Source of the DNA: Burkholderiaceae bacterium
Lineage (GTDB): Bacteria > Pseudomonadota > Gammaproteobacteria > Burkholderiales > Burkholderiaceae_C
Direction: 5' to 3'
DNA: 33,174 bases
Assembly: GCA_051649325.1 (NCBI GenBank)
Contig: JBOFGW010000290.1
Location: 1-33,174 of the forward strand
Part shown: piece by piece, positions 25,138-33,174 of the stretch
Layout: each line of letters opens with the position of its first letter
How positions within the stretch are numbered: the stretch's first letter is position 1
Notes under the pieces: model-generated
Told to the model about the DNA's origin: nothing
Seen by the model: the letters and a program-made list of their open reading frames with translations, nothing else
Databases searched by the model: none
Position numbers and translations under genes: made by a program

Positions 25138-26172
25138 CTAGTGTGTAGTTTCGGTCTTCACATGCCAAGCGGCATCACGCTGCTCAATCACAAATCGCAC
25201 CGGCAAGAACTGCGCAATTGTCTGCGCATTGGTGCGTGTGTGCTGCGTGATTTCATTGGCTACGAATTCGCCCGCGTTATTGTCTCTAGCGGCCAGCGCT
25301 TGCAGCAGCATGAGTTGATCAGCCAAATGCGGCCCCACCGGCGCGTGCGATTTTTGATAATCACGCAGCTCGCTCACCAACCGTTTGGCCACTTCGTCTG
25401 AACTCACCGCTTTCTCGCCAAACTGCGTGAACACTTCTGTCACGTGTTCATACGCGAGCGTGGCGATCAGCGCGTTGCCCGGCCCTTCGTTCTGGCGCGT
25501 GCCGCCGTGACGCAGTTGGTCACCGCTCCAGCCCATCGCCGCGCCCAGCACCTCTAGCTCGCGCGCGGGCACGCTGCGCGGCAGGCCGGGCGCGAGCGCT
25601 TCTGCGTACGCGTCAACAGGCGCGCCGCGCTGCGTGAGTGTGATGGGTTTGAGCTGCGCGGCCGGATAAATCACCGCTGTCATCTCACCCCCGCCCGCCG
25701 GATAAAACCCGTGGCGGCGCAAGCTGAGCTGCAGATCCGCACCCGCGCGGCGCACCAGCGGTGCAAACGCCTGCTGCAGAAAATGAAACGGCGGCGCCAT
25801 TGGGTTATGCGTGCCGCCCGCTAAATGAATCGTGCTGGCTGCATCGGCCAGCAGCAGCGGCGGCAACACCGTTTGCAGCACCAGCGTGCAAGACCCCGCG
25901 CTACCCACCGCAAAACTGTACTCGCCCGCCTTCACTTTGCCCGACGCAAACACCAGTTGCTGCGAATTCAATTCCGCACCTTCCACCTGCGCACCACACA
26001 CCGCCTGCGCCGCCTGCACGCAGGTGAGATGCTGCCGCATCAGCCCCGGCTTGGGCCGCTTCGCGCGAATGCTGTGCATGCGAAACGGCTTGCCCGTCAC
26101 CATCGACAAGGCCAGCGAAGTCCGCAAAATTTGTCCACCGCCTTCTCCGGCGGAACCGTCGATTTCAATCAC
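25138..26172 (-). CDS. rtcA: RNA 3'-terminal phosphate cyclase
   Basis: The protein is collinear with E. coli RtcA: IEIDGSAGEGGGQILRTSLALSMVTGKPF, RPKPGLMRQHLT, FAVGSAGSCTLVLQTVLPPL and RHGFYPAGGG. The GTG start overlaps the upstream gene's stop by 8 nt. Confidence 0.93.
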   Translation of the reverse strand: MIEIDGSAGEGGGQILRTSLALSMVTGKPFRMHSIRAKRPKPGLMRQHLTCVQAAQAVCGAQVEGAELNSQQLVFASGKVKAGEYSFAVGSAGSCTLVLQTVLPPLLLADAASTIHLAGGTHNPMAPPFHFLQQAFAPLVRRAGADLQLSLRRHGFYPAGGGEMTAVIYPAAQLKPITLTQRGAPVDAYAEALAPGLPRSVPARELEVLGAAMGWSGDQLRHGGTRQNEGPGNALIATLAYEHVTEVFTQFGEKAVSSDEVAKRLVSELRDYQKSHAPVGPHLADQLMLLQALAARDNNAGEFVANEITQHTRTNAQTIAQFLPVRFVIEQRDAAWHVKTETTH

Positions 26173-27274
26173 TTTTTTCTTCTCTTCGCCGAGTTACTTT
26201 TTTCTTTCCTCGTTCGAGCTTCTTTTGGTACTCCATCCATCCGCTGTGAAAACCTTGGTCAGCACGACTAGCCCAAGTTTCAAAAAGACTACCCAGGACT
26301 AAAGAGTCGACACTCGGAACAAGATGTAGGACTGCTTTGCCCGTCCGTACTAGAGATGACACCGTTAGGACTCCCGGCTCAGTAAGCCCTGCATTGCTAG
26401 GTCCAGCAAGAAGAATCTTGCCTTGGCTTTGATCATCCAAACCAAGCCTAAACATCACACCTTTTGCACTGGCATGAACGTTTTGGCTAGCAAATTTGTA
26501 GTACGGTCTCAAATATTCGTAGCCAGTGAACTCTTCCAGATCAAAGAAAGTAATCCTCCCGCTCTTAGCAAGCAGCTTTGCGGCCCAACCATAGTCTTTG
26601 GCAAAGCTTTCACCATTTGCAGCAATGGCTTTGTTTCGCTCTTTCGTGATCCGAGCCATTGCTTGACTAGATAGCTTTCTTTCACCAAGTGCGGCAGCGT
26701 GCGTTTGATATTGCAAAGCAGCGTGATAGTTCTCGACTGCGACATGAGAACGATAGAGCTGCGAAACGCCAGCTTCGCTATGAGCAAGTACATCGGCCAC
26801 TGTTGCAACTTCGTGCAATGAGCGCCAGCGTGCTATTGCGCCATCTGCGAATCCGTTAAGTAGCAAGTGATATATCTCACTTGAAATCTGAATAGAGCGC
26901 GCATGAAGCTGAGCTACAACGTCGATTCGAATTCTTTCCGCCTCAGAACGACTTCTTCTCAACGCCAGTTTTATTGACGCTTCAAGTTCAATCGACATAT
27001 TGATTAGCTCAAGCAAGCGGTCAAGGCCTGCATTCCAGTTCCGAGCATTGCTTCGTAGGAATTGGCCGTGATCTCTCTTCCACTCGCGAAGCGAATCTCG
27101 CGAGCGCTGGCGCAAACCCTTGGCAAGAACTTTGGCTAAATCACTCGCTATAGCGGGCAGGTCCTGAGCGAGGCGCTCTAGTTTTTCTTTACCTTCGCCA
27201 TGGGACGGAGAAAGCCCCATCTCCGTCAGCTTATCCGCTATCAGCGATTCAAAGATTTTTTGTATTCCTAGCAT
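26165..27274 (-). CDS. Hypothetical protein (369 aa, lower GC) inserted between rtcB and rtcA. Predicted all-alpha. Contains an RWRSLH (Rx4H) motif.
   Basis: A long ORF with coding-like codon usage, noticeably AT-richer than its neighbours. The ATG is at 27274. It is translationally coupled to rtcA. No family was recognised by eye. Confidence 0.6.
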   Translation of the reverse strand: MLGIQKIFESLIADKLTEMGLSPSHGEGKEKLERLAQDLPAIASDLAKVLAKGLRQRSRDSLREWKRDHGQFLRSNARNWNAGLDRLLELINMSIELEASIKLALRRSRSEAERIRIDVVAQLHARSIQISSEIYHLLLNGFADGAIARWRSLHEVATVADVLAHSEAGVSQLYRSHVAVENYHAALQYQTHAAALGERKLSSQAMARITKERNKAIAANGESFAKDYGWAAKLLAKSGRITFFDLEEFTGYEYLRPYYKFASQNVHASAKGVMFRLGLDDQSQGKILLAGPSNAGLTEPGVLTVSSLVRTGKAVLHLVPSVDSLVLGSLFETWASRADQGFHSGWMEYQKKLERGKKKVTRRREEKSD

Positions 27275-27293
27275 TTATTGGCCGCTTGGCTAT

Positions 27294-27415
27294 CCCTTCA
27301 AACACACAACCTACCTCAACATATAAACCACTTCCACCAAATCCCTCTGCGCTCCCATCATCGCATCAATACCCTTGTACGCCATCGGAATTTCATCGAT
27401 CACATCAGCGTCTTT
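27294..27415 (-). pseudogene. Degenerate duplicate of the rtcB 3' end (last ~40 codons), a non-functional fragment
   Basis: The 122 bp are about 88% identical (14 mismatches) to rtcB 28385-28506. Translation gives KDADVIDEIPMAYKGIDAMMGAQRDLVEVVYMLR*VVCLKG, against the rtcB C-terminus KDADVIDEIPMAYKDIDAVMEAQKDLVEVVYTLKQVVCVKG. An internal stop is present. Confidence 0.85.
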
Positions 27416-27474
27416 GCTTGATACAAACTTGTCCGACGCTTTGCGCTGCGTATGCATCAGTGCCCAGATTCCGG

Positions 27475-28365
27475 TTAGTCCTTTTCGCAGTACCAGCGAG
27501 CATTTTTCGCAATCATGCTGTGGGGGCTGTTACATAGGGCTGCGAGCAGGCTTCTCCTCTGCGGAAAATCCATTCGATTTGCCAGCACTACAAAGGCGCG
27601 CCAAGCTATGTTTTTGTCTGTACTGTGCAGGGCTTGCGATATCGGTTCTTTGAGTTCTGATGCCGGCAGTCTTAACACTGGGCGCAACCAGTTTGAGAGA
27701 TGTTTGCTGTCATTGAGATATGCAGGAATCAGCCAAAACGCGTCCGCGCGGCCAACAGAATGTGCGATTGCCCTACTCGCGGCTTCGCCCAGGTGGTACT
27801 CCCAGCTTCTGTAGGCTGCGTTCTCAGCTTCTTTAATCCAATTCCGCAAGCGTTGTATGTTCGCGCTACCTCCCCAACTTCCCAGTACGCCTACTGCCGT
27901 CGTACGAATACCCCACCATTTGCTGCTCAACGCGTTTTCAACTTCCAACTGAGCGCTTTCATCGGGCGCATGGTTGCTCAAGGCGCGTAGACGTGCCGTC
28001 CATTCCCGCAGCAAATCCGCATTGTTCAGCGCGAACTCACGCCGCGTTTTCCGACACCGTAAGCAGCGCACGGCCTGGCTGTCGATGTTTCCTTTGGCAA
28101 TCTCATACCACCACTTTTGCTGTGCCGCGGTCCAAACGCCGTTTGTGCCGCAATCCTTGCACGTAAACGCGCGGTCTTCGTAGAACTTTGGCAGCAGGTT
28201 GTAAGTGCTGTTGTGCGCGAGCTGAGCCGGATCGGCGCTTATTCGGCTCGTGGAACCTGAAGAAGCAGCGAACCGCACATCATTTATTTTTGATTGAAAC
28301 CATGTAGCCGCCCGCTCCTGCCGGCGCTGCATGATTTCTTTTCGGCGTTTTTTGTTGCTTTTCAT
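27475..28365 (-). CDS. Hypothetical protein (296 aa, lower GC) with a basic N-terminus and a CxxC...CxxC zinc-ribbon. Inserted between rtcB and rtcA.
   Basis: The N-terminus is MKSNKKRRKEIMQRRQER. The Zn-ribbon is CKDCGTNGVW...CLRCRK. The gene starts 15 nt after the rtcB stop. No family was recognised. Confidence 0.6.
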   Translation of the reverse strand: MKSNKKRRKEIMQRRQERAATWFQSKINDVRFAASSGSTSRISADPAQLAHNSTYNLLPKFYEDRAFTCKDCGTNGVWTAAQQKWWYEIAKGNIDSQAVRCLRCRKTRREFALNNADLLREWTARLRALSNHAPDESAQLEVENALSSKWWGIRTTAVGVLGSWGGSANIQRLRNWIKEAENAAYRSWEYHLGEAASRAIAHSVGRADAFWLIPAYLNDSKHLSNWLRPVLRLPASELKEPISQALHSTDKNIAWRAFVVLANRMDFPQRRSLLAALCNSPHSMIAKNARWYCEKD

Positions 28366-28380: not shown

Positions 28381-29613
28381 CTAGCCCTTCACGCACACCA
28401 CCTGCTTCAACGTATAAACCACCTCCACCAAATCCTTCTGCGCTTCCATCACCGCATCAATGTCCTTGTACGCCATCGGAATTTCATCGATCACGTCGGC
28501 GTCTTTACGGCATTCCACGCCGGCGGTGGCTTTGATTTGGTCTTCGATGGTGAACAGTTTTTTGGCTTTGGTGCGGCTCATGGTACGGCCGGCGCCATGG
28601 CTGCATGACTGGAAGCTTTCCGGGTTGCCTTTGCCGCGCACGATGTAGCTGCGCGCGCCCATGCTGCCCGGAATAATCCCCAGCTCGCCTTTTTTGGCGC
28701 TTACCGCGCCTTTGCGCGTGACAAATACCTCTTCACCAAAGTGCGTCTCTTTTTGCACGTAGTTGTGGTGGCAGTTCACGGCTTCGATATGCGTTTCAAA
28801 CGGCTTGGTGATCACTTTGCGGGTGGCACCGATCACGCGCTGCATCATCACCTCACGGTTTAGGCGCGCGAACTTCTGCGCCCAGCCCACGCCGCGCACG
28901 TAGTCACCAAAGTATGTGCTGCCTTCTTCAAAGTAGGCCAAATCCTGGTCTGGCAAATTGCGTTGATGCTGCTCGGCGTCTTTCTTAGCCAGCTCGATAA
29001 ACAGATTGCCCATAGCGTTGCCCACGCCGCGTGAACCGCTATGTAGCATGAACCACACCGCGCCTTCGGTATCCAAACACACCTCGATAAAGTGGTTGCC
29101 GCCGCCCAGCGTACCCATGTGGCGGTGGTTGTTGGTGTTTTTCAGACGCGGGTAGTCTTCACAAATCTGCTCAAACTCCTCGGCCAATTGCGCCCAAGCG
29201 GCATCTGCCTCGTTGGGCGGCGTTTCCCAAGAGCCTTTGTCACGGTTTGAACCTTCACGGCGAAACTGCTTGGGGCTCATGCCGTGCGGCACGGCCTTTT
29301 CAATCTCGGCGCGCAGCGCGCTCAAGTTATCCGGCAAATCTTCCGCGCGCAGCGTGGTCTTGCAGGCAATCATGCCGCAGCCAATATCCACGCCTACCGC
29401 CGCAGGAATAATCGCCTTGAAGGTAGGAATCACGCTGCCCACAGTAGCGCCAATGCCGTAGTGAACATCCGGCATAGCGGCGATGTGTTTGAAGATCACC
29501 GGTAGCTTGGCAGCGTTTTCCAATTGCTTGCGCGCTTCGTCTTCCACCGGCACGCCGCGCGTCCACATCTTCACGGGTACGCCGCCGGGGACTTCGTTCA
29601 ATTCGTAGTTCAT
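28381..29613 (-). CDS. rtcB: RNA-splicing ligase RtcB
   Basis: Collinear with E. coli RtcB from MNYELNEVPGGVPVKMWTRGVPVEDEARKQL to the C-terminus DEIPMAYKDIDAVMEAQKDLVEVVYTLKQVVCVKG. Metal-ligand His/Cys motifs are conserved (HNYV, CSHGAGR). Confidence 0.95.
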   Translation of the reverse strand: MNYELNEVPGGVPVKMWTRGVPVEDEARKQLENAAKLPVIFKHIAAMPDVHYGIGATVGSVIPTFKAIIPAAVGVDIGCGMIACKTTLRAEDLPDNLSALRAEIEKAVPHGMSPKQFRREGSNRDKGSWETPPNEADAAWAQLAEEFEQICEDYPRLKNTNNHRHMGTLGGGNHFIEVCLDTEGAVWFMLHSGSRGVGNAMGNLFIELAKKDAEQHQRNLPDQDLAYFEEGSTYFGDYVRGVGWAQKFARLNREVMMQRVIGATRKVITKPFETHIEAVNCHHNYVQKETHFGEEVFVTRKGAVSAKKGELGIIPGSMGARSYIVRGKGNPESFQSCSHGAGRTMSRTKAKKLFTIEDQIKATAGVECRKDADVIDEIPMAYKDIDAVMEAQKDLVEVVYTLKQVVCVKG

Positions 29614-29626
29614 TTTTTTCTTTCGG

Positions 29627-30085
29627 TCAATTTGCTAGATCATTACTCATTACCCAAACGCCGCCTTCGTGGCTGTACGCGAGTCCGAGCTTTCCAGGCA
29701 CGATTGACACAAACCCTTCTAGAAAGCGAGGTGCATGTTGTTTTAGAAAGGCGTTCAAAGTGCATTGGAATATTTGCGGTTGCCGACTTCGAAAGTGACC
29801 ACAGGCCAAAGCAGTGCAAACCCGCTCAAGGTGCGGCCGTAGAAAGACTTCCGTTATCTTTTCAGTAGTCATTGGCGGCACGTTGTCATAGCAACTGCCA
29901 GGCCAAACATCGATTGGCGAAATTCTGTCCCACCGCTCCTCTGAGCGCGATAGCAAGTACTCCCAACGCTCTGCTTTTTCGGGCGCAAAGGTCTTGAAGA
30001 GCGTTATCAAGTCTCCCTTAGCTGCCGCGGCTTCCTCCAGCGTCATGACATTCCCATTTAAGAACTTCATAAGGTGATTTCTCAC
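29627..30085 (-). CDS. Hypothetical protein (about 150 aa, lower GC), immediately upstream of rtcB in the same operon
   Basis: The listed ORF starts at GTG 30085; an ATG at 30070 gives MKFLNGNVMTLEEAAAAKG... It is AT-richer than the flanking rtcB and SPFH genes. No family was recognised. Confidence 0.5.
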   Translation of the reverse strand: MRNHLMKFLNGNVMTLEEAAAAKGDLITLFKTFAPEKAERWEYLLSRSEERWDRISPIDVWPGSCYDNVPPMTTEKITEVFLRPHLERVCTALACGHFRSRQPQIFQCTLNAFLKQHAPRFLEGFVSIVPGKLGLAYSHEGGVWVMSNDLAN

Positions 30086-30198: not shown

Positions 30199-31338
30199 TT
30201 AGCGCACTTTGATCAAGCTGTTCAGTACGCCATCCAGGCCGCCAAATACAGAGATCTTGTCGATCCGTTCGGCGATCTTCTCCAACGTTTCCAACTCCTT
30301 CATCCGCAATGCGGTGGGGTTGTCTTCCATCACCTTGGCCGTGTTCAGCAAAGACCGCGTTGCGGCAGTCTCTTCACGGCGGCGGATGTTGTTGGCTTGC
30401 GCCGTCTTTTCCGCCTCAACAACCTTGGCCAAGATGGCTTTCATCTCACCAGGCAAGATAATGTCTTTCACTCCCACGCTTTGCAGTGCCACGCCGTAGC
30501 CGGCCAATTTGTCGGTCACCGCGGCTACGACCACTTGGTCGATCACGTTGCGGTTTTCCAGCAACTCGTCCAGCAAACGCGTACCTACTGCCGCACGCAA
30601 GCCCAATTGCAGCTCGCGGTACAGCGCTTCAGCGGGCTGATTCAATTGCGTGAAGGCCTTGAGCACATCGGTGTACTTGAAGGTGGCAGACAAATTCAGG
30701 CGCAGGGCCACTTTGTCTTTGGTCAAAATTTCTTGACCAGTCACCTCCAAGGACTGCAAACGCATGTCCACAATCTCTACCGACACCTCGCGGCCAAAGC
30801 GCCAGAACGCATACGCACCGGGGCTGAGCAACTGCATCAACTTGCCGTCTACACGCAGCACACCGCTGGCGTAATCAGGCACGGTGGTTTGCAGCACCGC
30901 ATTCAAGCCAGCCACCGCACGCGCACGCAACTGGGTCTGCGTCAAACGCTTGGCCAGCGCCGCATCCACCTGTACTTGCTCGGCGATTTCAACCGCTTGC
31001 ACGCGTACATCGCGCAGGCCTTTCCAGTACAAGCGCCGGGTTCCGGGCGGCAGCAATTCAACCAGCACGCCGTCTTCAAAGCGCAAACCCGCCTGCGTTT
31101 CTGCCAGCTCAACCCGCACAAACTCTTGCGCCACGATGTCTGGCGCAGAAGCCATCAAATAGTCAGCCACCGGGTTTGCAAACGCGGGCTGTGCCAAGTC
31201 AAAGCGTTCGATGCGCAGCTTGTTCAGTGGGTCAAACAGCGCGTACGCACCAGGCGCCAAAATGCGCTGGAAGTCGCCGCTTTTGAACAGCAAGGCTTTT
31301 TCAGTTTTTTTGATGACGAATCGCTTCAACATTTTCAT
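30199..31338 (-). CDS. SPFH/band-7 (stomatin/prohibitin/flotillin/HflKC-like) domain protein. It has an N-terminal extension and no obvious transmembrane anchor.
   Basis: The C-terminal half, TKDKVALRLNLSATFKYTD...GVALQSVGVKDIILPGEMKAILAKVVEAEKTAQANNIRRREETAATR...LRMKELETLEKIAE, is typical SPFH plus coiled coil. SD AGAGAGGAA precedes ATG 31338/31332. Confidence 0.7.
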   Translation of the reverse strand: MKMLKRFVIKKTEKALLFKSGDFQRILAPGAYALFDPLNKLRIERFDLAQPAFANPVADYLMASAPDIVAQEFVRVELAETQAGLRFEDGVLVELLPPGTRRLYWKGLRDVRVQAVEIAEQVQVDAALAKRLTQTQLRARAVAGLNAVLQTTVPDYASGVLRVDGKLMQLLSPGAYAFWRFGREVSVEIVDMRLQSLEVTGQEILTKDKVALRLNLSATFKYTDVLKAFTQLNQPAEALYRELQLGLRAAVGTRLLDELLENRNVIDQVVVAAVTDKLAGYGVALQSVGVKDIILPGEMKAILAKVVEAEKTAQANNIRRREETAATRSLLNTAKVMEDNPTALRMKELETLEKIAERIDKISVFGGLDGVLNSLIKVR

Positions 31339-31655
31339 TTTCCTCTCTCATTTTCTTTACTTTTTTGTGTACCCTTTGCGCAGCAGGCGGCGGGCTATTG
31401 GGCGGACGTTGAATGATTGCTGCTGCCGCTACCAACGCGCCGTGGCACGCTAGCGTGAACAACCCATTTATTCACATCAGCCCAGCAGCGCAAGCAAACT
31501 TCTTGCGCCTGCTGCGGGTGTTGGGCACTGCGCATCTTGCACACCCGGCTGCAATACTGCCAGCCGTGCGTGACGTTTGCGCCGCACCCGCAACCTTCGG
31601 GCACTTTCCCTGGTTTCCCAGGGCACTGCATCGACAAAACACGTTTCTTAGACGT

Positions 31656-31729
31656 GTGTTCAGGCAGGAGTCGAACCTGCGACAACCGGAGTTGCCCCCG
31701 GGGCTCTAACCAATCTGAGCTACAGAACG
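31656..31729 (-). ncRNA. tRNA-like structured RNA element 1: canonical D-arm and T-arm, defective acceptor and anticodon arms. Possibly a Y-RNA-like tRNA mimic or a tRNA pseudogene.
   Basis: The minus-strand sequence is CGTTCTG-TA-GCTC-AGATTGGTTA-GAGC-...-GCAGG-TTCGACT-CCTGC-CTGAACA. The D-stem and T-stem are perfect and the T-loop is TTCGACT. The acceptor stem has 5 of 7 bp (C1·A72 and U6·U67 mismatches). The anticodon stem has a mismatch, the loop is GGGCAAC (no U33), and no CCA is encoded. Confidence 0.45.
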
Positions 31730-31740
31730 GCGCGATCACG

Positions 31741-31870
31741 GGGAATCGAACCCACAGCTCTTTCGAGCGCCAACCTTGGCTGTTCGCATATCCAATCGCG
31801 TGCAGTGCAGCGGCATACACCAAGATCACACCCGGTCTGGGTGAACTGGCGCACCGGCGGGGTAGATGTT
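31741..31870 (-). ncRNA. Structured RNA element 2 adjacent to element 1. It has a T-loop-like hairpin (GGG-TTCGATT-CCC), a GNRA-capped hairpin (GCTC-GAAA-GAGC) and other stems. It is not a canonical tRNA.
   Basis: Minus-strand features: ...GCCAAGGTTGGC (palindrome), GCTCGAAAGAGC and CTGTGGGTTCGATTCCCCG. It is non-coding and lies between the candidate sigma54 promoter and the first gene of the rtc operon. Confidence 0.35.
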
Positions 31871-31926
31871 TTCTAAACCCCTGACCTGTGAGCGTGCATC
31901 GTCGTTTGATCAGATGCTTGAGATAT

Positions 31927-31943
31927 AGCGATTGGTGTGCCAG
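31927..31943 (-). promoter_or_regulatory. Candidate sigma54 (-24/-12) promoter driving the minus-strand rtc operon
   Basis: Minus strand reads TGGCAC-ACCAA-TCGCT. The GG-N10-GC spacing is correct, -24 TGGCAC is perfect, and -12 is TCGC versus consensus TTGC. It is divergent from rtcR, whose product is a sigma54 activator. An AT-rich region (31950-32055) lies upstream for the UAS/IHF. Confidence 0.5.
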
Positions 31944-32055
31944 GGCTGTTTGAAACTTGCAACCTATTGATTTATATGGGTATTTTTGCCTCCAATTCGA
32001 TAACCCTACTTTGAAAATCTTTTAAACATAGATTTTTAGCTAGTAAGATAGCTTT

Positions 32056-33174
32056 ATGACTAGCAAGAAATCCGTCGTCATCGGCTTTTTGGGCACCCAA
32101 CTCGATAGCGGCCAAGGCACCGGCCGTTGGGAGAAATGGCGGCCAACGGTGTCGCTCGCGCAGCATGAAGACCTGCAGCTTGACCGGCTGGAGCTGATTT
32201 ACACGCCGCGCCATCAAGCGCTGGCGGAGATCGTCAAGGCGGATATTGCGCTTGCCTCACCGCAGACCGTTGTGAACTTGGTCGCCATCGATATCAAAGA
32301 CCCGTGGGACTTTGGCGAGGTGTACGGCGCGCTATATGACTACGTGCGCACCTACGCGTTTGATACCGAGCGCGAGCAGTACTGGGCGCACATCACCACC
32401 GGCACGCACGTGGCGCAGATTTGCATGTTCTTGCTGGTGGAGGCGCGCTTTATTCCCGGTGTGTTGTGCCAAACCGCGCCGCCAAAAAAGCAGCGCCAAG
32501 GCGATGCGGGCACGGTCACACTGATTGATCTTGATCTGTCGCGCTACGACGCGCTGGCGCAGCGCTTTGCAGCAGACAAGCGCGATGCGGTAAGTTTTCT
32601 CAAGAGCGGCATTGCCACACGCAACAAAAAATTCAACGCGCTGATTGAAGAGATTGAACGCGTGGCCGTACGCAGCAAAGCGCCGATTTTGCTCACCGGC
32701 CCTACCGGCGCGGGCAAATCGTTTTTAGCGCGGCGCATGTTTGAGCTGAAAAAAGCGCGCCACCAAATCGGCGGCCCGTTTGTAGAGGTGAACTGCGCCA
32801 CGCTGCATGGCGATGGCGCGGCGTCCACATTGTTTGGTCACAAGAAAGGCGCGTTTACCGGCGCGGCGGCAGACCGGGCGGGCCTTTTAAAAAGCGCGGA
32901 TGGCGGTGTGCTGTTTCTAGACGAGATCGGTGAGCTGGGCTTAGACGAGCAAGCCATGCTGCTCAAAGCGATTGAAGAGAAACGCTTCTTTCCCGTAGGC
33001 GCAGACCGCGAAGTAGCGAGCGACTTTCAACTCATCGCCGGCACCAACCGCGACTTGCGCGATGAGGTGAGCGCCGGCCGCTTTCGCGACGATCTCTTCG
33101 CACGCATCAATTTGTGGAGCTATGACTTGCCGGGCCTGGCGCAGCGGCCCGAGGACATTGAGCCCAACATCGAC
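32056..33174 (+). CDS. rtcR: Sigma54-dependent transcriptional activator RtcR (N-terminal CARF domain + AAA+ sigma54-interaction domain). It is 3'-truncated by the window end.
   Basis: The protein is collinear with E. coli RtcR: VVIGFLGTQLD, RWEKWRPT, LDRLEL, NPWDFGEVY, ITTGTHVAQICMFLL, IDLDLSRY, FLKSGIATRN, APILLTGPTGAGKSFLARR, FVEVNCATL, GAFTGA, GGVLFLDEIGELG, QAMLLKAIEEK, DFQLIAGTNRDL, RINLW and PGLAQRPEDIEPN. No stop falls before the window end. Confidence 0.93.
   Translation, partial: MTSKKSVVIGFLGTQLDSGQGTGRWEKWRPTVSLAQHEDLQLDRLELIYTPRHQALAEIVKADIALASPQTVVNLVAIDIKDPWDFGEVYGALYDYVRTYAFDTEREQYWAHITTGTHVAQICMFLLVEARFIPGVLCQTAPPKKQRQGDAGTVTLIDLDLSRYDALAQRFAADKRDAVSFLKSGIATRNKKFNALIEEIERVAVRSKAPILLTGPTGAGKSFLARRMFELKKARHQIGGPFVEVNCATLHGDGAASTLFGHKKGAFTGAAADRAGLLKSADGGVLFLDEIGELGLDEQAMLLKAIEEKRFFPVGADREVASDFQLIAGTNRDLRDEVSAGRFRDDLFARINLWSYDLPGLAQRPEDIEPNID

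Follow-up and report, generated by a model that had tools for sequence, protein, structure and literature searches.

A probable b7a-type tRNA mimic in the structured leader of an RtcR-linked slipin-rtcB-rtcA operon

YrlA and its Ro partner are known in structure, and their function is not clear. tRNA fragments ending in a cyclic phosphate activate RtcR, and YrlA's tRNA-like domain has been suggested to inhibit by competition the anticodon nuclease, by which Salmonella YrlA is not cleaved (PMC7790460). The b7a-tRNA ("band-7-associated tRNA") was predicted computationally by Burroughs & Aravind in 2016 in the neighbourhood of Band-7 and RtcB. A later account (10.1101/312249), whose secondary description is the definition of the class used here, reports occasional exchanges between it and YrlA/Rsr. 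By that account the class had no experimental validation as of 2018 (10.1101/312249), and we have found no later paper on it.

Here we describe the leader of a probably RtcR-controlled operon in a 33,174-nucleotide stretch of Burkholderiaceae DNA (the whole of which is called the window). An original prediction had placed two tRNA-like elements in this leader and had compared them functionally with Salmonella YrlA, an analogy that the literature also draws for the b7a-tRNA class (10.1101/312249). From sequence comparison, Element 1 is very probably a conserved, non-decoding tRNA mimic of the b7a type. It is real, yet it is no new type of element, the b7a-tRNA having been published before.

Operon, promoter and leader in the window

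The operon runs in the order slipin (Band-7), a 152-aa ORF, rtcB, a zf/HEAT gene, a DUF5677 gene and rtcA (Table 1). The slipin shows 100% identity to a 'slipin family protein' entered at NCBI from a Burkholderiaceae MAG, and a PDB profile search identified its C-terminal half as a stomatin-type SPFH domain, the PDB relatives of which form 16-mer rings. The rtcR product consists of a CARF-like RtcR domain and a sigma54 activator (Pfam). A Pfam scan covering the operon proteins and other large window ORFs found no TROVE/Rsr (Ro60) gene, and the window locus is without a tRNA array and without an HNH gene. A structured non-coding leader of ~580 nt precedes slipin in the operon; a coding leader was rejected, since its 56-, 53- and 144-aa ORFs are without conservation (tblastn, all E>0.01).

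Table 1. Features of the operon and its leader, in the order of the operon strand
Feature	Position	Strand	Basis or remark
rtcR, divergent, truncated at window end	32068..33174	+	Pfam PF06956, 1.5e-82; PF00158, 4.7e-51
sigma54-type promoter TGGCACACCAATCGC (TGGCAC-N5-TCGC)	31928..31942	-	sole match in window
single-stranded CGCUCAC, conserved	31888-31894	-	5' of leader hairpin 1
leader hairpin 1	31856..31886	-	RNAalifold consensus, 52 loci
leader hairpin 2	31812..31855	-	RNAalifold consensus, 52 loci
tRNA-like module 1 (core of Element 2)	31731..31800	-	family model R2, covariation in relatives
module 1 closing stem	31795-31800 / 31731-31736	-	CGCGAU / AUCGCG
module 1 D-like hairpin	31769-31780	-	
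module 1 GAAA-capped hairpin	31757-31768	-	GCTC-GAAA-GAGC
module 1 T hairpin	31741-31753	-	GGG-TTCGATT-CCC
tRNA-like module 2 (Element 1, b7a-tRNA)	31656..31729	-	ARAGORN, Rfam, family model R1
Element 1 acceptor, imperfect	31723-31729 / 31657-31663	-	
Element 1 D-arm	31703-31720	-	
Element 1 anticodon-arm stem	31696-31701 / 31686-31691	-	GCAA tetraloop 31692-31695
Element 1 T-arm	31664-31680	-	
hairpin ACACGU-CUAAGAA-ACGUGU, then UUU	31639..31657	-	directly 3' of module 2; read from sequence
3' leader section to slipin start codon	31339..31638	-	conserved blocks, covariation
slipin / Band-7 (SPFH) gene	30199..31338	-	operon ORF no. 1; Pfam PF01145, 2.6e-26
RtcB RNA ligase gene	28381..29613	-	Pfam PF01139, 1.8e-130
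RtcA RNA 3'-phosphate cyclase gene	25138..26172	-	closes operon; Pfam PF01137, 1.7e-79

Between the divergent rtcR and the operon lies a predicted sigma54 site with GG at -24, GC at -12 and canonical spacing, from which transcription would start at about 31916. By itself, such a site is not above chance (0.57 expected; at least one match in 46 of 100 shuffles). Across homologous loci, the strict pattern TGGCAC-N5-NNGC recurs at a constant distance: 32 of 33 RtcR-linked loci have it, and none of 43 RtcR-less loci does; in the remaining RtcR-linked locus (L070) the promoter differs by one base, and TGGCAC and the -12 GC are invariant in the 22 RtcR-linked loci that were aligned. This distribution supports the candidate sigma54 promoter of the original prediction as a probable genuine one.

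ARAGORN reports Element 1 as 'tRNA-Cys gca', and Rfam RF00005 matches it with 39.2 bits (gathering score 29; E=5e-05 over the whole window), compared with 63.7 bits from the family model R1. Its borders, D-arm, T-arm, two acceptor mismatches (C1.A72 and U6.U67) and missing CCA are all as had been predicted. Its 3' border and the slipin start codon, which follows on the same strand, are 317 nt apart. The anticodon arm had been described as having a loop GGGCAAC and, correctly, as lacking U33. The MFE fold and the alignment register favour another reading of the arm, in which a GCAA tetraloop closes a 6-bp stem, CCGGGG/CUCCGG with one G.U. The tRNA elbow is retained (U8, A14, G18-G19, A21, G53-T54-T55-C56, A58 and C61), and the features needed for decoding and charging are gone, there being a GNRA-capped anticodon arm, 4-5 reliable acceptor pairs and no CCA. 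The motif GGTTCGANTCC has two copies in the 33-kb window, both in Elements 1/2 on the operon strand and 75 nt apart, against a chance expectation of 0.04. Single-sequence thermodynamic z-scores (-0.6 to -1.8) are not significant, so that folding energy is not used as evidence here and support comes from comparison with related loci.

Besides the b7a-tRNA, the leader has a tandem degenerate tRNA-like module, two covarying 5' hairpins and a structured 3' part. Element 2 had been proposed as a single element (31741-31870) containing two named hairpins. Both hairpins were found within module 1, while the single element has to be divided, as it merges the 5' hairpin pair (31812-31886) with module 1. 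The window copy of module 1 is degenerate, R2 matching the T hairpin alone (14.3 bits) and the MFE fold being ambiguous. Leader hairpin 1 shows compensatory changes in both helical segments (52 loci), and the window MFE fold agrees with it. In leader hairpin 2, the closing pairs join GGU, from the invariant CCGGUG, to GCC, from the invariant AUGCCGC (31810-31816; ATGCCGC in 52/52 loci), and 8 consecutive pairs have two-sided changes in 6-28 sequences each.

The hairpin directly 3' of module 2 has a counterpart of variable sequence at the equivalent position in most relatives; it was rejected as an intrinsic terminator, for it is not called by the terminator scan and relatives have no U-run. 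Across 45 loci, the 3' leader section shows blocks of conservation along with two helices that covary, one of which is long-range; the window copy is partly diverged. We found no dedicated Rfam family for the leader: a search of 31300-32100 at a permissive threshold returned tRNA, a sub-threshold YrlA match and noise.

Conservation and covariation among related loci

Of the 78 loci with enough upstream sequence, 73 have a homologue of Element 1 on the slipin strand, 230-340 nt upstream of that gene, and these span Burkholderiales and Pseudomonas. Some lineages can do without the mimic: five loci keep slipin-rtcB with no recognisable tRNA-like module, and the three Pseudomonas loci of these five (L072, L073 and L079) still carry the 5' hairpin motif. 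Leader conservation reaches the ribosome-binding site. When viral contigs were scanned for the leader by exact pattern, all 11 hits were chance matches within phage tRNA arrays and with no slipin/RtcB; blastn of the leader against plasmids gave no match.

In a MAFFT alignment of 38 Element 1 homologues (A3), the D, anticodon and T stems are 98-100% paired, and the covariation score is 0.362; shuffles give 0.115 and slid controls no more than 0.095. Two-sided changes occur in 5/5 anticodon-stem pairs and 3/5 T-stem pairs, with an invariant D stem. The acceptor is the least conserved helix, its outer 3 pairs being unpaired in 20-27 of the 38 sequences. The conditions that would have refuted the original prediction thus turn out in its favour: conservation is strong, as is covariation in the anticodon and T stems, and what is called as a 'tRNA' scores low and departs from the canonical form.

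The anticodon arm divides the homologues. Tetraloops (GAAA, GCAA, UUCG) cap it in 15 of 27 RtcR-linked loci, and in the other loci the anticodon loop is 7 nt long, with C32 U33 ... A37 A38 and 23 different triplets. Forty-nine homologues keep this canonical loop shape, and most loci with a 7-nt loop have no adjacent rtcR. Like the tandem module, the two 5' hairpins and the structured 3' leader, the replacement of the anticodon loop by a tetraloop in RtcR-linked loci may be an addition to the original description of the b7a-tRNA. It provides a natural contrast between a tetraloop-capped anticodon arm (RtcR-linked) and a retained anticodon-loop shape (array-linked), by which decoy, scaffold and processing-signal hypotheses become testable in Acidovorax, Delftia, Variovorax and Pseudomonas.

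In RtcR-less loci the order is tRNA array (up to 14 genes), HNH endonuclease gene, leader, slipin and rtcB, the leader lying on the same strand as the array and the HNH gene and having no sigma54 promoter. CCA is encoded in the neighbouring array tRNAs and absent from the b7a elements; with tRNA models the former score 50-63 bits and the latter 31-54 bits, in many cases matching only locally. We also considered, and rejected, that array tRNAs nearby had converted the anticodon arm of the b7a element, the best match still having 4 mismatches in 17 nt.

Module 1 is better preserved in relatives than in the window. R2 finds it immediately upstream of the b7a-tRNA in ~60 loci, with a 6-7 bp acceptor stem and, in 40 of 63, an NCCA tail. 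Its covariation score of 0.428 (0.130 for shuffles) was obtained on a covariance-model alignment, which leans towards the modelled structure. By fixed-column pair counting on the MAFFT alignment only 52% of the acceptor cells are paired, owing to register shifts between loci, and for this reason the covariance-model alignment was used instead. From the Element 2 alignment made with MAFFT, RNAalifold recovered the T-arm alone.

Proposed function and alternative readings

The best explanation overall, towards which we lean with some reserve, is that the non-decoding tRNA mimics are the RNA partner of a slipin-RtcB repair module. Upon RNA damage, RtcR would activate the sigma54 promoter, so that the tRNA mimics are made alongside slipin and RtcB. 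They would then be freed by tRNA-processing nucleases or be retained in the leader; release of Element 1 is uncertain, because RNase P may cut it poorly, given its short acceptor stem. In partnership with the ring-forming slipin and with the RtcB ligase, the mimics could serve as a scaffold, cofactor or competitive decoy displaying the tRNA shape, in parallel with what has been proposed for YrlA with Ro/Rsr in the Salmonella rsr-yrlBA-rtcBA operon. A ribonucleoprotein cofactor or decoy mechanism can be put forward only tentatively.

The tRNA-like pieces might also be domains of one large structured RNA without an Rfam family, a proposal that we regard as rather unlikely. Such an RNA would measure ~580 nt in the window and up to ~650 nt in relatives, and its domains would be, in order, CGCUCAC with the two hairpins, the reduced-D module (with CCA in relatives), the b7a-tRNA, the GNRA hairpin and a 3' domain with long-range helices. 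The leader RNA is conserved in more than 70 Burkholderiales and Pseudomonas species, whichever promoter is present. If this proposal were true, the RNA and the ring-forming slipin would together build a particle of a Ro/Y-RNA-like or vault-like kind, which would dock RtcB or protect tRNAs against nucleases, and the 'b7a-tRNA' of 2016 would merely be its most recognisable domain.

A different and similarly doubtful possibility is that the modules are cis-acting processing or stability signals ('tRNA punctuation') cut by RNase P and RNase Z/E, the cuts separating the slipin-rtcB mRNA from upstream RNA and/or giving it a defined stable 5' end, with no role for the excised pieces. Co-transcription and processing are indeed plausible in RtcR-less loci, given the same-strand tRNA array and HNH gene and the missing sigma54 promoter, and module 1 of the relatives, with its acceptor stem and NCCA tail, resembles a processable tRNA precursor; the conservation of the entire leader is also in line with this possibility. 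However, an invariant D/T elbow and a covarying anticodon arm would be superfluous for a plain cleavage signal across this species range, and the acceptor stem, which is the main RNase P determinant, is the helix that Element 1 conserves least. In RtcR-linked loci, moreover, the leader has its own promoter ~20 nt upstream, so there is no upstream RNA to remove. We consider it improbable that the mimic is a sentinel substrate, which an anticodon nuclease would cut into 2',3'-cyclic-phosphate fragments that bind the RtcR CARF domain and feed back on the operon. The loci that keep the canonical 7-nt loop shape while the triplet drifts, which would suit such a substrate, mostly have no adjacent rtcR, and the RtcR-bearing loci, including that of the window, have mostly swapped the loop for GNRA/UUCG tetraloops. 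The known response of RtcR to cyclic-phosphate tRNA fragments speaks for a sentinel, while the uncut Salmonella YrlA speaks against it (both PMC7790460). A link to the CARF ligand had been raised in the original prediction too, and the nuclease-resistant-looking GNRA tetraloop of the window is partial evidence against it.

That Element 1 is a plain tRNA-Cys gene, or a decaying tRNA pseudogene that is intergenic by chance, is very improbable. The GCA that ARAGORN takes for an anticodon, in a sequence that does pass the RF00005 gathering score, lies within a tetraloop on a 6-bp stem, the acceptor is mismatched and lacks CCA, and array tRNAs differ from b7a elements in both score and CCA. The 73 loci with 23 'anticodons' or tetraloops, an invariant D/T core and compensatory stem changes point to purifying selection on shape, not to decay. 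'tRNA-Cys'-like calls upstream of slipin-rtcB should accordingly not be annotated as decoding tRNAs. A YrlA-type Y RNA as in Salmonella, composed of a T-arm, an acceptor-like stem, a D-arm and a Ro-binding stem, is hardly credible here, despite the RtcR-controlled operon setting and a weak RF02553 match at 31673-31783. This match scores 17.1 bits where the gathering score is 69 (E=1.2), contains many non-canonical pairs and joins the module 1 T-arm to the module 2 D-arm; the apparent YrlA-like order of T-arm then D-arm arises because these two arms abut, and the D-arm sits in a complete cloverleaf whose own anticodon and T arms covary. No terminal stem with the Ro-binding motif GNCGAAN0-1G was found around the window element, and the GUCGAAAG-like string downstream in relatives is a GNRA-capped hairpin with a variable loop (GAAA, GCAA or GCGA) and no Ro-binding motif. 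The original idea of Y-RNA-like tRNA mimics is thus retained in that the operon strand carries non-coding tRNA mimics, placed after an RtcR-type sigma54 promoter and before the first ORF, and is given up as regards membership in the Y RNA/YrlA family, in view of the low score and of the lack of a TROVE/Rsr gene among the scanned window ORFs.

Comparison with known RNA systems

Like YrlA (RF02553; Chen et al., RNA 2014), Element 1 is a tRNA mimic, probably co-transcribed with rtcBA under RtcR and sigma54, with a proposed role as RNA-repair cofactor or decoy. YrlA, however, has a circularly permuted order (T, acceptor-like stem, D) and a Ro-binding stem that closes it, whereas Element 1 follows the normal tRNA order and has its own anticodon arm; the partner of YrlA is Ro60/Rsr, and the candidate partner of Element 1 is slipin. 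With canonical tRNA (RF00005), Element 1 shares the cloverleaf, the universal elbow nucleotides and a score above the gathering threshold. It differs in carrying the GCAA tetraloop in place of a 7-nt anticodon loop with U33, in having a mismatched acceptor without CCA in a family that keeps 4-5 pairs, in place of a 7-bp acceptor with a CCA end, and in sitting inside an mRNA leader.

Module 1 of the relatives resembles the tRNA-like domain of tmRNA, with an acceptor stem, T-arm and CCA, a reduced D and no anticodon. It is much smaller, has no mRNA-like part, shows no G3.U70 in the inspected examples and has no known SmpB context; the likeness is one of shape only. The gene classes of the RtcR-less loci (tRNA arrays, HNH, slipin and rtcB) have also been reported around cyanobacterial L-arrays and in the TrcR regulon. 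The cyanobacterial papers describe no tRNA-like leader upstream of slipin, and the leader of the window is probably driven by RtcR and sigma54.

The b7a-tRNA remains the closest described relative. Element 1 shares with it the strong resemblance to authentic tRNA, here a tRNA-like cloverleaf backed by covariation in 38 homologues, a neighbouring Band-7/SPFH gene and the RtcB RNA-ligase operon, RtcB being encoded two genes downstream, with RtcA and RtcR also present. Its place is immediately upstream of slipin, in an rtcB-rtcA operon that is probably under RtcR control, and none of its features contradicts membership in the class. To this class the present locus brings a covariation-backed leader anatomy, with two tandem mimics that have complementary defects, flanking conserved hairpins and a defined sigma54 promoter.

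Element 1 and its homologues

The tRNA-like Element 1 was called by ARAGORN as 'tRNA-Cys(gca)' at 31656-31729 (minus strand), exactly where the original prediction had placed it, and scores 39.2 bits with the Rfam tRNA model (gathering score 29). As had been claimed from the sequence, its D-arm and T-arm are perfect, its acceptor stem contains two mismatches (C.A and U.U), and CCA is not encoded at its end. For the anticodon arm, a 6-bp stem that ends in a GCAA tetraloop is a better reading than the proposed 7-nt loop lacking U33. The T-loop motif GGTTCGANTCC is found at only two sites in 33 kb, in Elements 1 and 2 (chance expectation 0.04).

A slipin profile yielded 80 related loci from one-genome-per-species contigs, mostly from Burkholderiales and some from Pseudomonas. 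Type A loci resemble the window: rtcR is divergent, and the intergenic region measures ~700 nt (729 nt between rtcR and slipin in the window, containing the tRNA-like elements). Type B loci have no rtcR nearby; 1-3 kb upstream of the leader, and on its strand, they carry arrays of up to 14 canonical tRNA genes, after which comes an HNH endonuclease gene (PF14279). Whatever the type, a tRNA-like element precedes the slipin start codon by 230-340 nt, and ARAGORN assigns it many different 'anticodons' or makes no call. A covariance model built from 38 homologues detects it in 73 of the 78 loci with sufficient upstream sequence, and gives the window copy 63.7 bits.

When aligned by MAFFT, with no structure imposed, this family has 98-100% pairing in its D, anticodon and T stems, with compensatory changes in 5/5 anticodon-stem pairs, and the covariation score is 0.362, compared with 0.115 for shuffles and ≤0.095 for slid controls. 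The elbow nucleotides U8, A14, G19, A21, G53, T54, T55, C56, A58 and C61 are invariant or nearly so. Of the acceptor, the inner four pairs alone are retained, the outer three being unpaired in 20-27 of 38 sequences. GNRA or UUCG tetraloops occur in 15/27 type A loci, the window included, whereas type B loci mostly have a 7-nt loop with conserved C32, U33, A37 and A38 around 23 different central triplets.

Modules of the leader

The sigma54-like site at 31928-31942 (minus strand) is not significant in the window alone; it is, however, conserved as TGGCAC-N5-NNGC at a fixed upstream distance in 32 of 33 type A loci, with a one-base variant in the remaining one, and is absent from every type B locus. 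Within the leader, invariant CCGGUG and AUGCCGC close the second 5' hairpin, in which eight consecutive pairs show 6-28 compensatory sequences each. The range first proposed for Element 2 (31741-31870, minus strand) mixes two modules, the 5' hairpins (31812-31886) and a tRNA-like unit (module 1). Both hairpins described for Element 2 exist (GCUC-GAAA-GAGC at 31757-31768 and GGG-UUCGAUU-CCC at 31741-31753).

In relatives, the acceptor stem of module 1 has 6-7 bp and varies greatly in sequence, the D region is reduced, a hairpin carries a GNRA cap, the T-arm shows covariation, and the tail contains CCA in 40/63. A model of the module matches ~60 loci, abutting the Element 1 homologue in every one; in an alignment fitted to this model, the covariation of the module is 0.428 versus 0.130 for shuffles. 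In two Pseudomonas loci ARAGORN sees a full tRNA-like gene. The window copy is degenerate; the T hairpin alone matches the model, and the fold is ambiguous.

Conserved blocks continue through the 3' leader as far as the ribosome-binding site, together with two covarying helices, of which one extends over ~190 nt; no conserved ORF was found in the leader. In relatives (alignment A10, 45 loci), the blocks include a GGUC-GNRA-GACC hairpin, CCGCCGAACGYGG, CAUCAGCGGCGG and CUGUAACGGCACC, from which the window sequence (31339-31638, minus strand) has partly diverged. That the whole leader is one large functional RNA seems to us unlikely; if true, it would make the finding more interesting.

The tRNA-like modules have been lost in some lineages. 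Three Pseudomonas loci among these (L072:3555-4001, and also L073 and L079) keep the sigma54 promoter and both 5' hairpins, including ATGCCGC, but what is left of the two modules can no longer be recognised, which makes the 5' hairpins the leader's most persistent part.

Gene neighbourhood

The window comes from a Burkholderiaceae MAG, as a contig of chromosomal origin. Its 152-aa ORF matched nothing in Pfam nor, by tblastn, any of the 80 related loci, and may be a lineage-specific insertion or no gene. The zf_Tbcl/HEAT gene adjoins rtcB in many relatives too, and no DUF5677 gene was seen in other related loci. The RtcB-like fragment, 69% identical to the intact RtcB over residues 359-410 of the latter, looks like a leftover of rearrangement or cassette insertion within the operon. 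In five Acidovorax loci rtcR is immediately followed by an RNase P RNA gene (190-210 bits), a curious neighbour for an operon that begins with tRNA-like RNAs, and probably a genus-specific synteny. In two loci (L080:5360-5402, L077:5344-5408), the spacer between slipin and rtcB gives weak matches (~18-22 bits) to both RNA models; these resemble a T-arm and may represent a further T-loop hairpin.

Features of the window and of related slipin loci (L followed by a number)
Feature	Position	Strand	Remark
rtcR	from 32068, cut by window end	+	divergent from operon
5' hairpins	31856-31886 and 31812-31855	-	first leader module; preceded by conserved CGCUCAC
tRNA-like module 1	31731-31800	-	second leader module
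slipin/Band-7	31338-30199	-	first ORF of operon
152-aa ORF	29627-30085	-	between slipin and rtcB
RtcB	29613-28381	-	operon member
zf_Tbcl (treble-clef zinc finger) + HEAT-repeat protein	27475-28365	-	operon member
RtcB C-terminus-like fragment	27293-27448	-	between zf_Tbcl/HEAT and DUF5677 genes
DUF5677 protein	26165-27274	-	operon member
RtcA	26172-25138	-	operon member
tRNA arrays, RtcR-less loci L002-L032 and others	e.g. L008:1135-2813, L006:1804-2840, L015:1819-2877	same as leader	CCA-encoding
HNH endonuclease	L006:2511-3461		PF14279; after tRNA array
RNase P RNA	L033:1195-1635, L038:1219-1654, L049:1278-1629, L050:1301-1640, L051:1296-1635	all -	RF00010

Identity and possible role

The ARAGORN call and the Rfam score could be taken to mean that Element 1 is a plain tRNA or a tRNA pseudogene. 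The generic tRNA model gives its family 31-54 bits, often as local matches only, against 50-63 bits for the array tRNAs, which encode CCA as the family does not. Together with the conserved tRNA core and the drifting or tetraloop-capped anticodon, this shows the element to be under selection for tRNA shape, not for decoding or charging. Nor is it a YrlA-type Y RNA, the kinship first suggested as possible: the YrlA model gives 17.1 bits against a gathering threshold of 69, in a weak match bridging the module 1 T-arm and the Element 1 D-arm, and no TROVE/Rsr gene was seen among the window ORFs scanned. The idea of a tRNA mimic in an RtcR operon was right in spirit, since the elements are conserved, covarying and non-coding under a sigma54/RtcR-type promoter, and the observation of tRNA-like leader elements is confirmed. 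The class itself is not new: a preprint (bioRxiv 10.1101/312249) describes exactly such a linkage of a b7a-tRNA (band-7-associated tRNA) to Band-7, with strong tRNA resemblance, occasional swaps with YrlA/Rsr and, as of 2018, no experimental validation. We found no literature on b7a-tRNA after 2018. Element 1 is a further case of this predicted class.

Taken together, the leader is conserved, structured and non-coding, carries two tRNA mimics and is strictly linked to slipin-rtcB, with a sigma54/RtcR-type promoter in the window-like layout. The mimics would probably be made along with slipin and RtcB upon RNA damage and, by analogy with Ro-YrlA, would act as an RNA partner of the slipin-RtcB module, be it scaffold, cofactor or decoy; two sources express this idea for YrlA (PMC7790460; 10.1101/312249). 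The C-terminal half of the slipin is a stomatin-type, ring-forming SPFH domain, and its N-terminal 185 residues form three beta repeats (AF2 pLDDT 82.7) in which no known RNA-binding fold was seen, which lends such a partner role no support from the protein side. The modules could instead be a purely cis-acting processing or stability signal, or the mimic could be a sentinel substrate feeding the CARF domain of RtcR, against which the tetraloops of the RtcR-linked loci speak.

Some features may go beyond the published b7a description: the second module in tandem, the flanking domains with their covariation, a divide by locus type between tetraloops and loops of anticodon shape, and the association with tRNA arrays. 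The tRNA array and HNH gene of the RtcR-less loci belong to the gene classes that have also been reported around cyanobacterial tRNA L-arrays.
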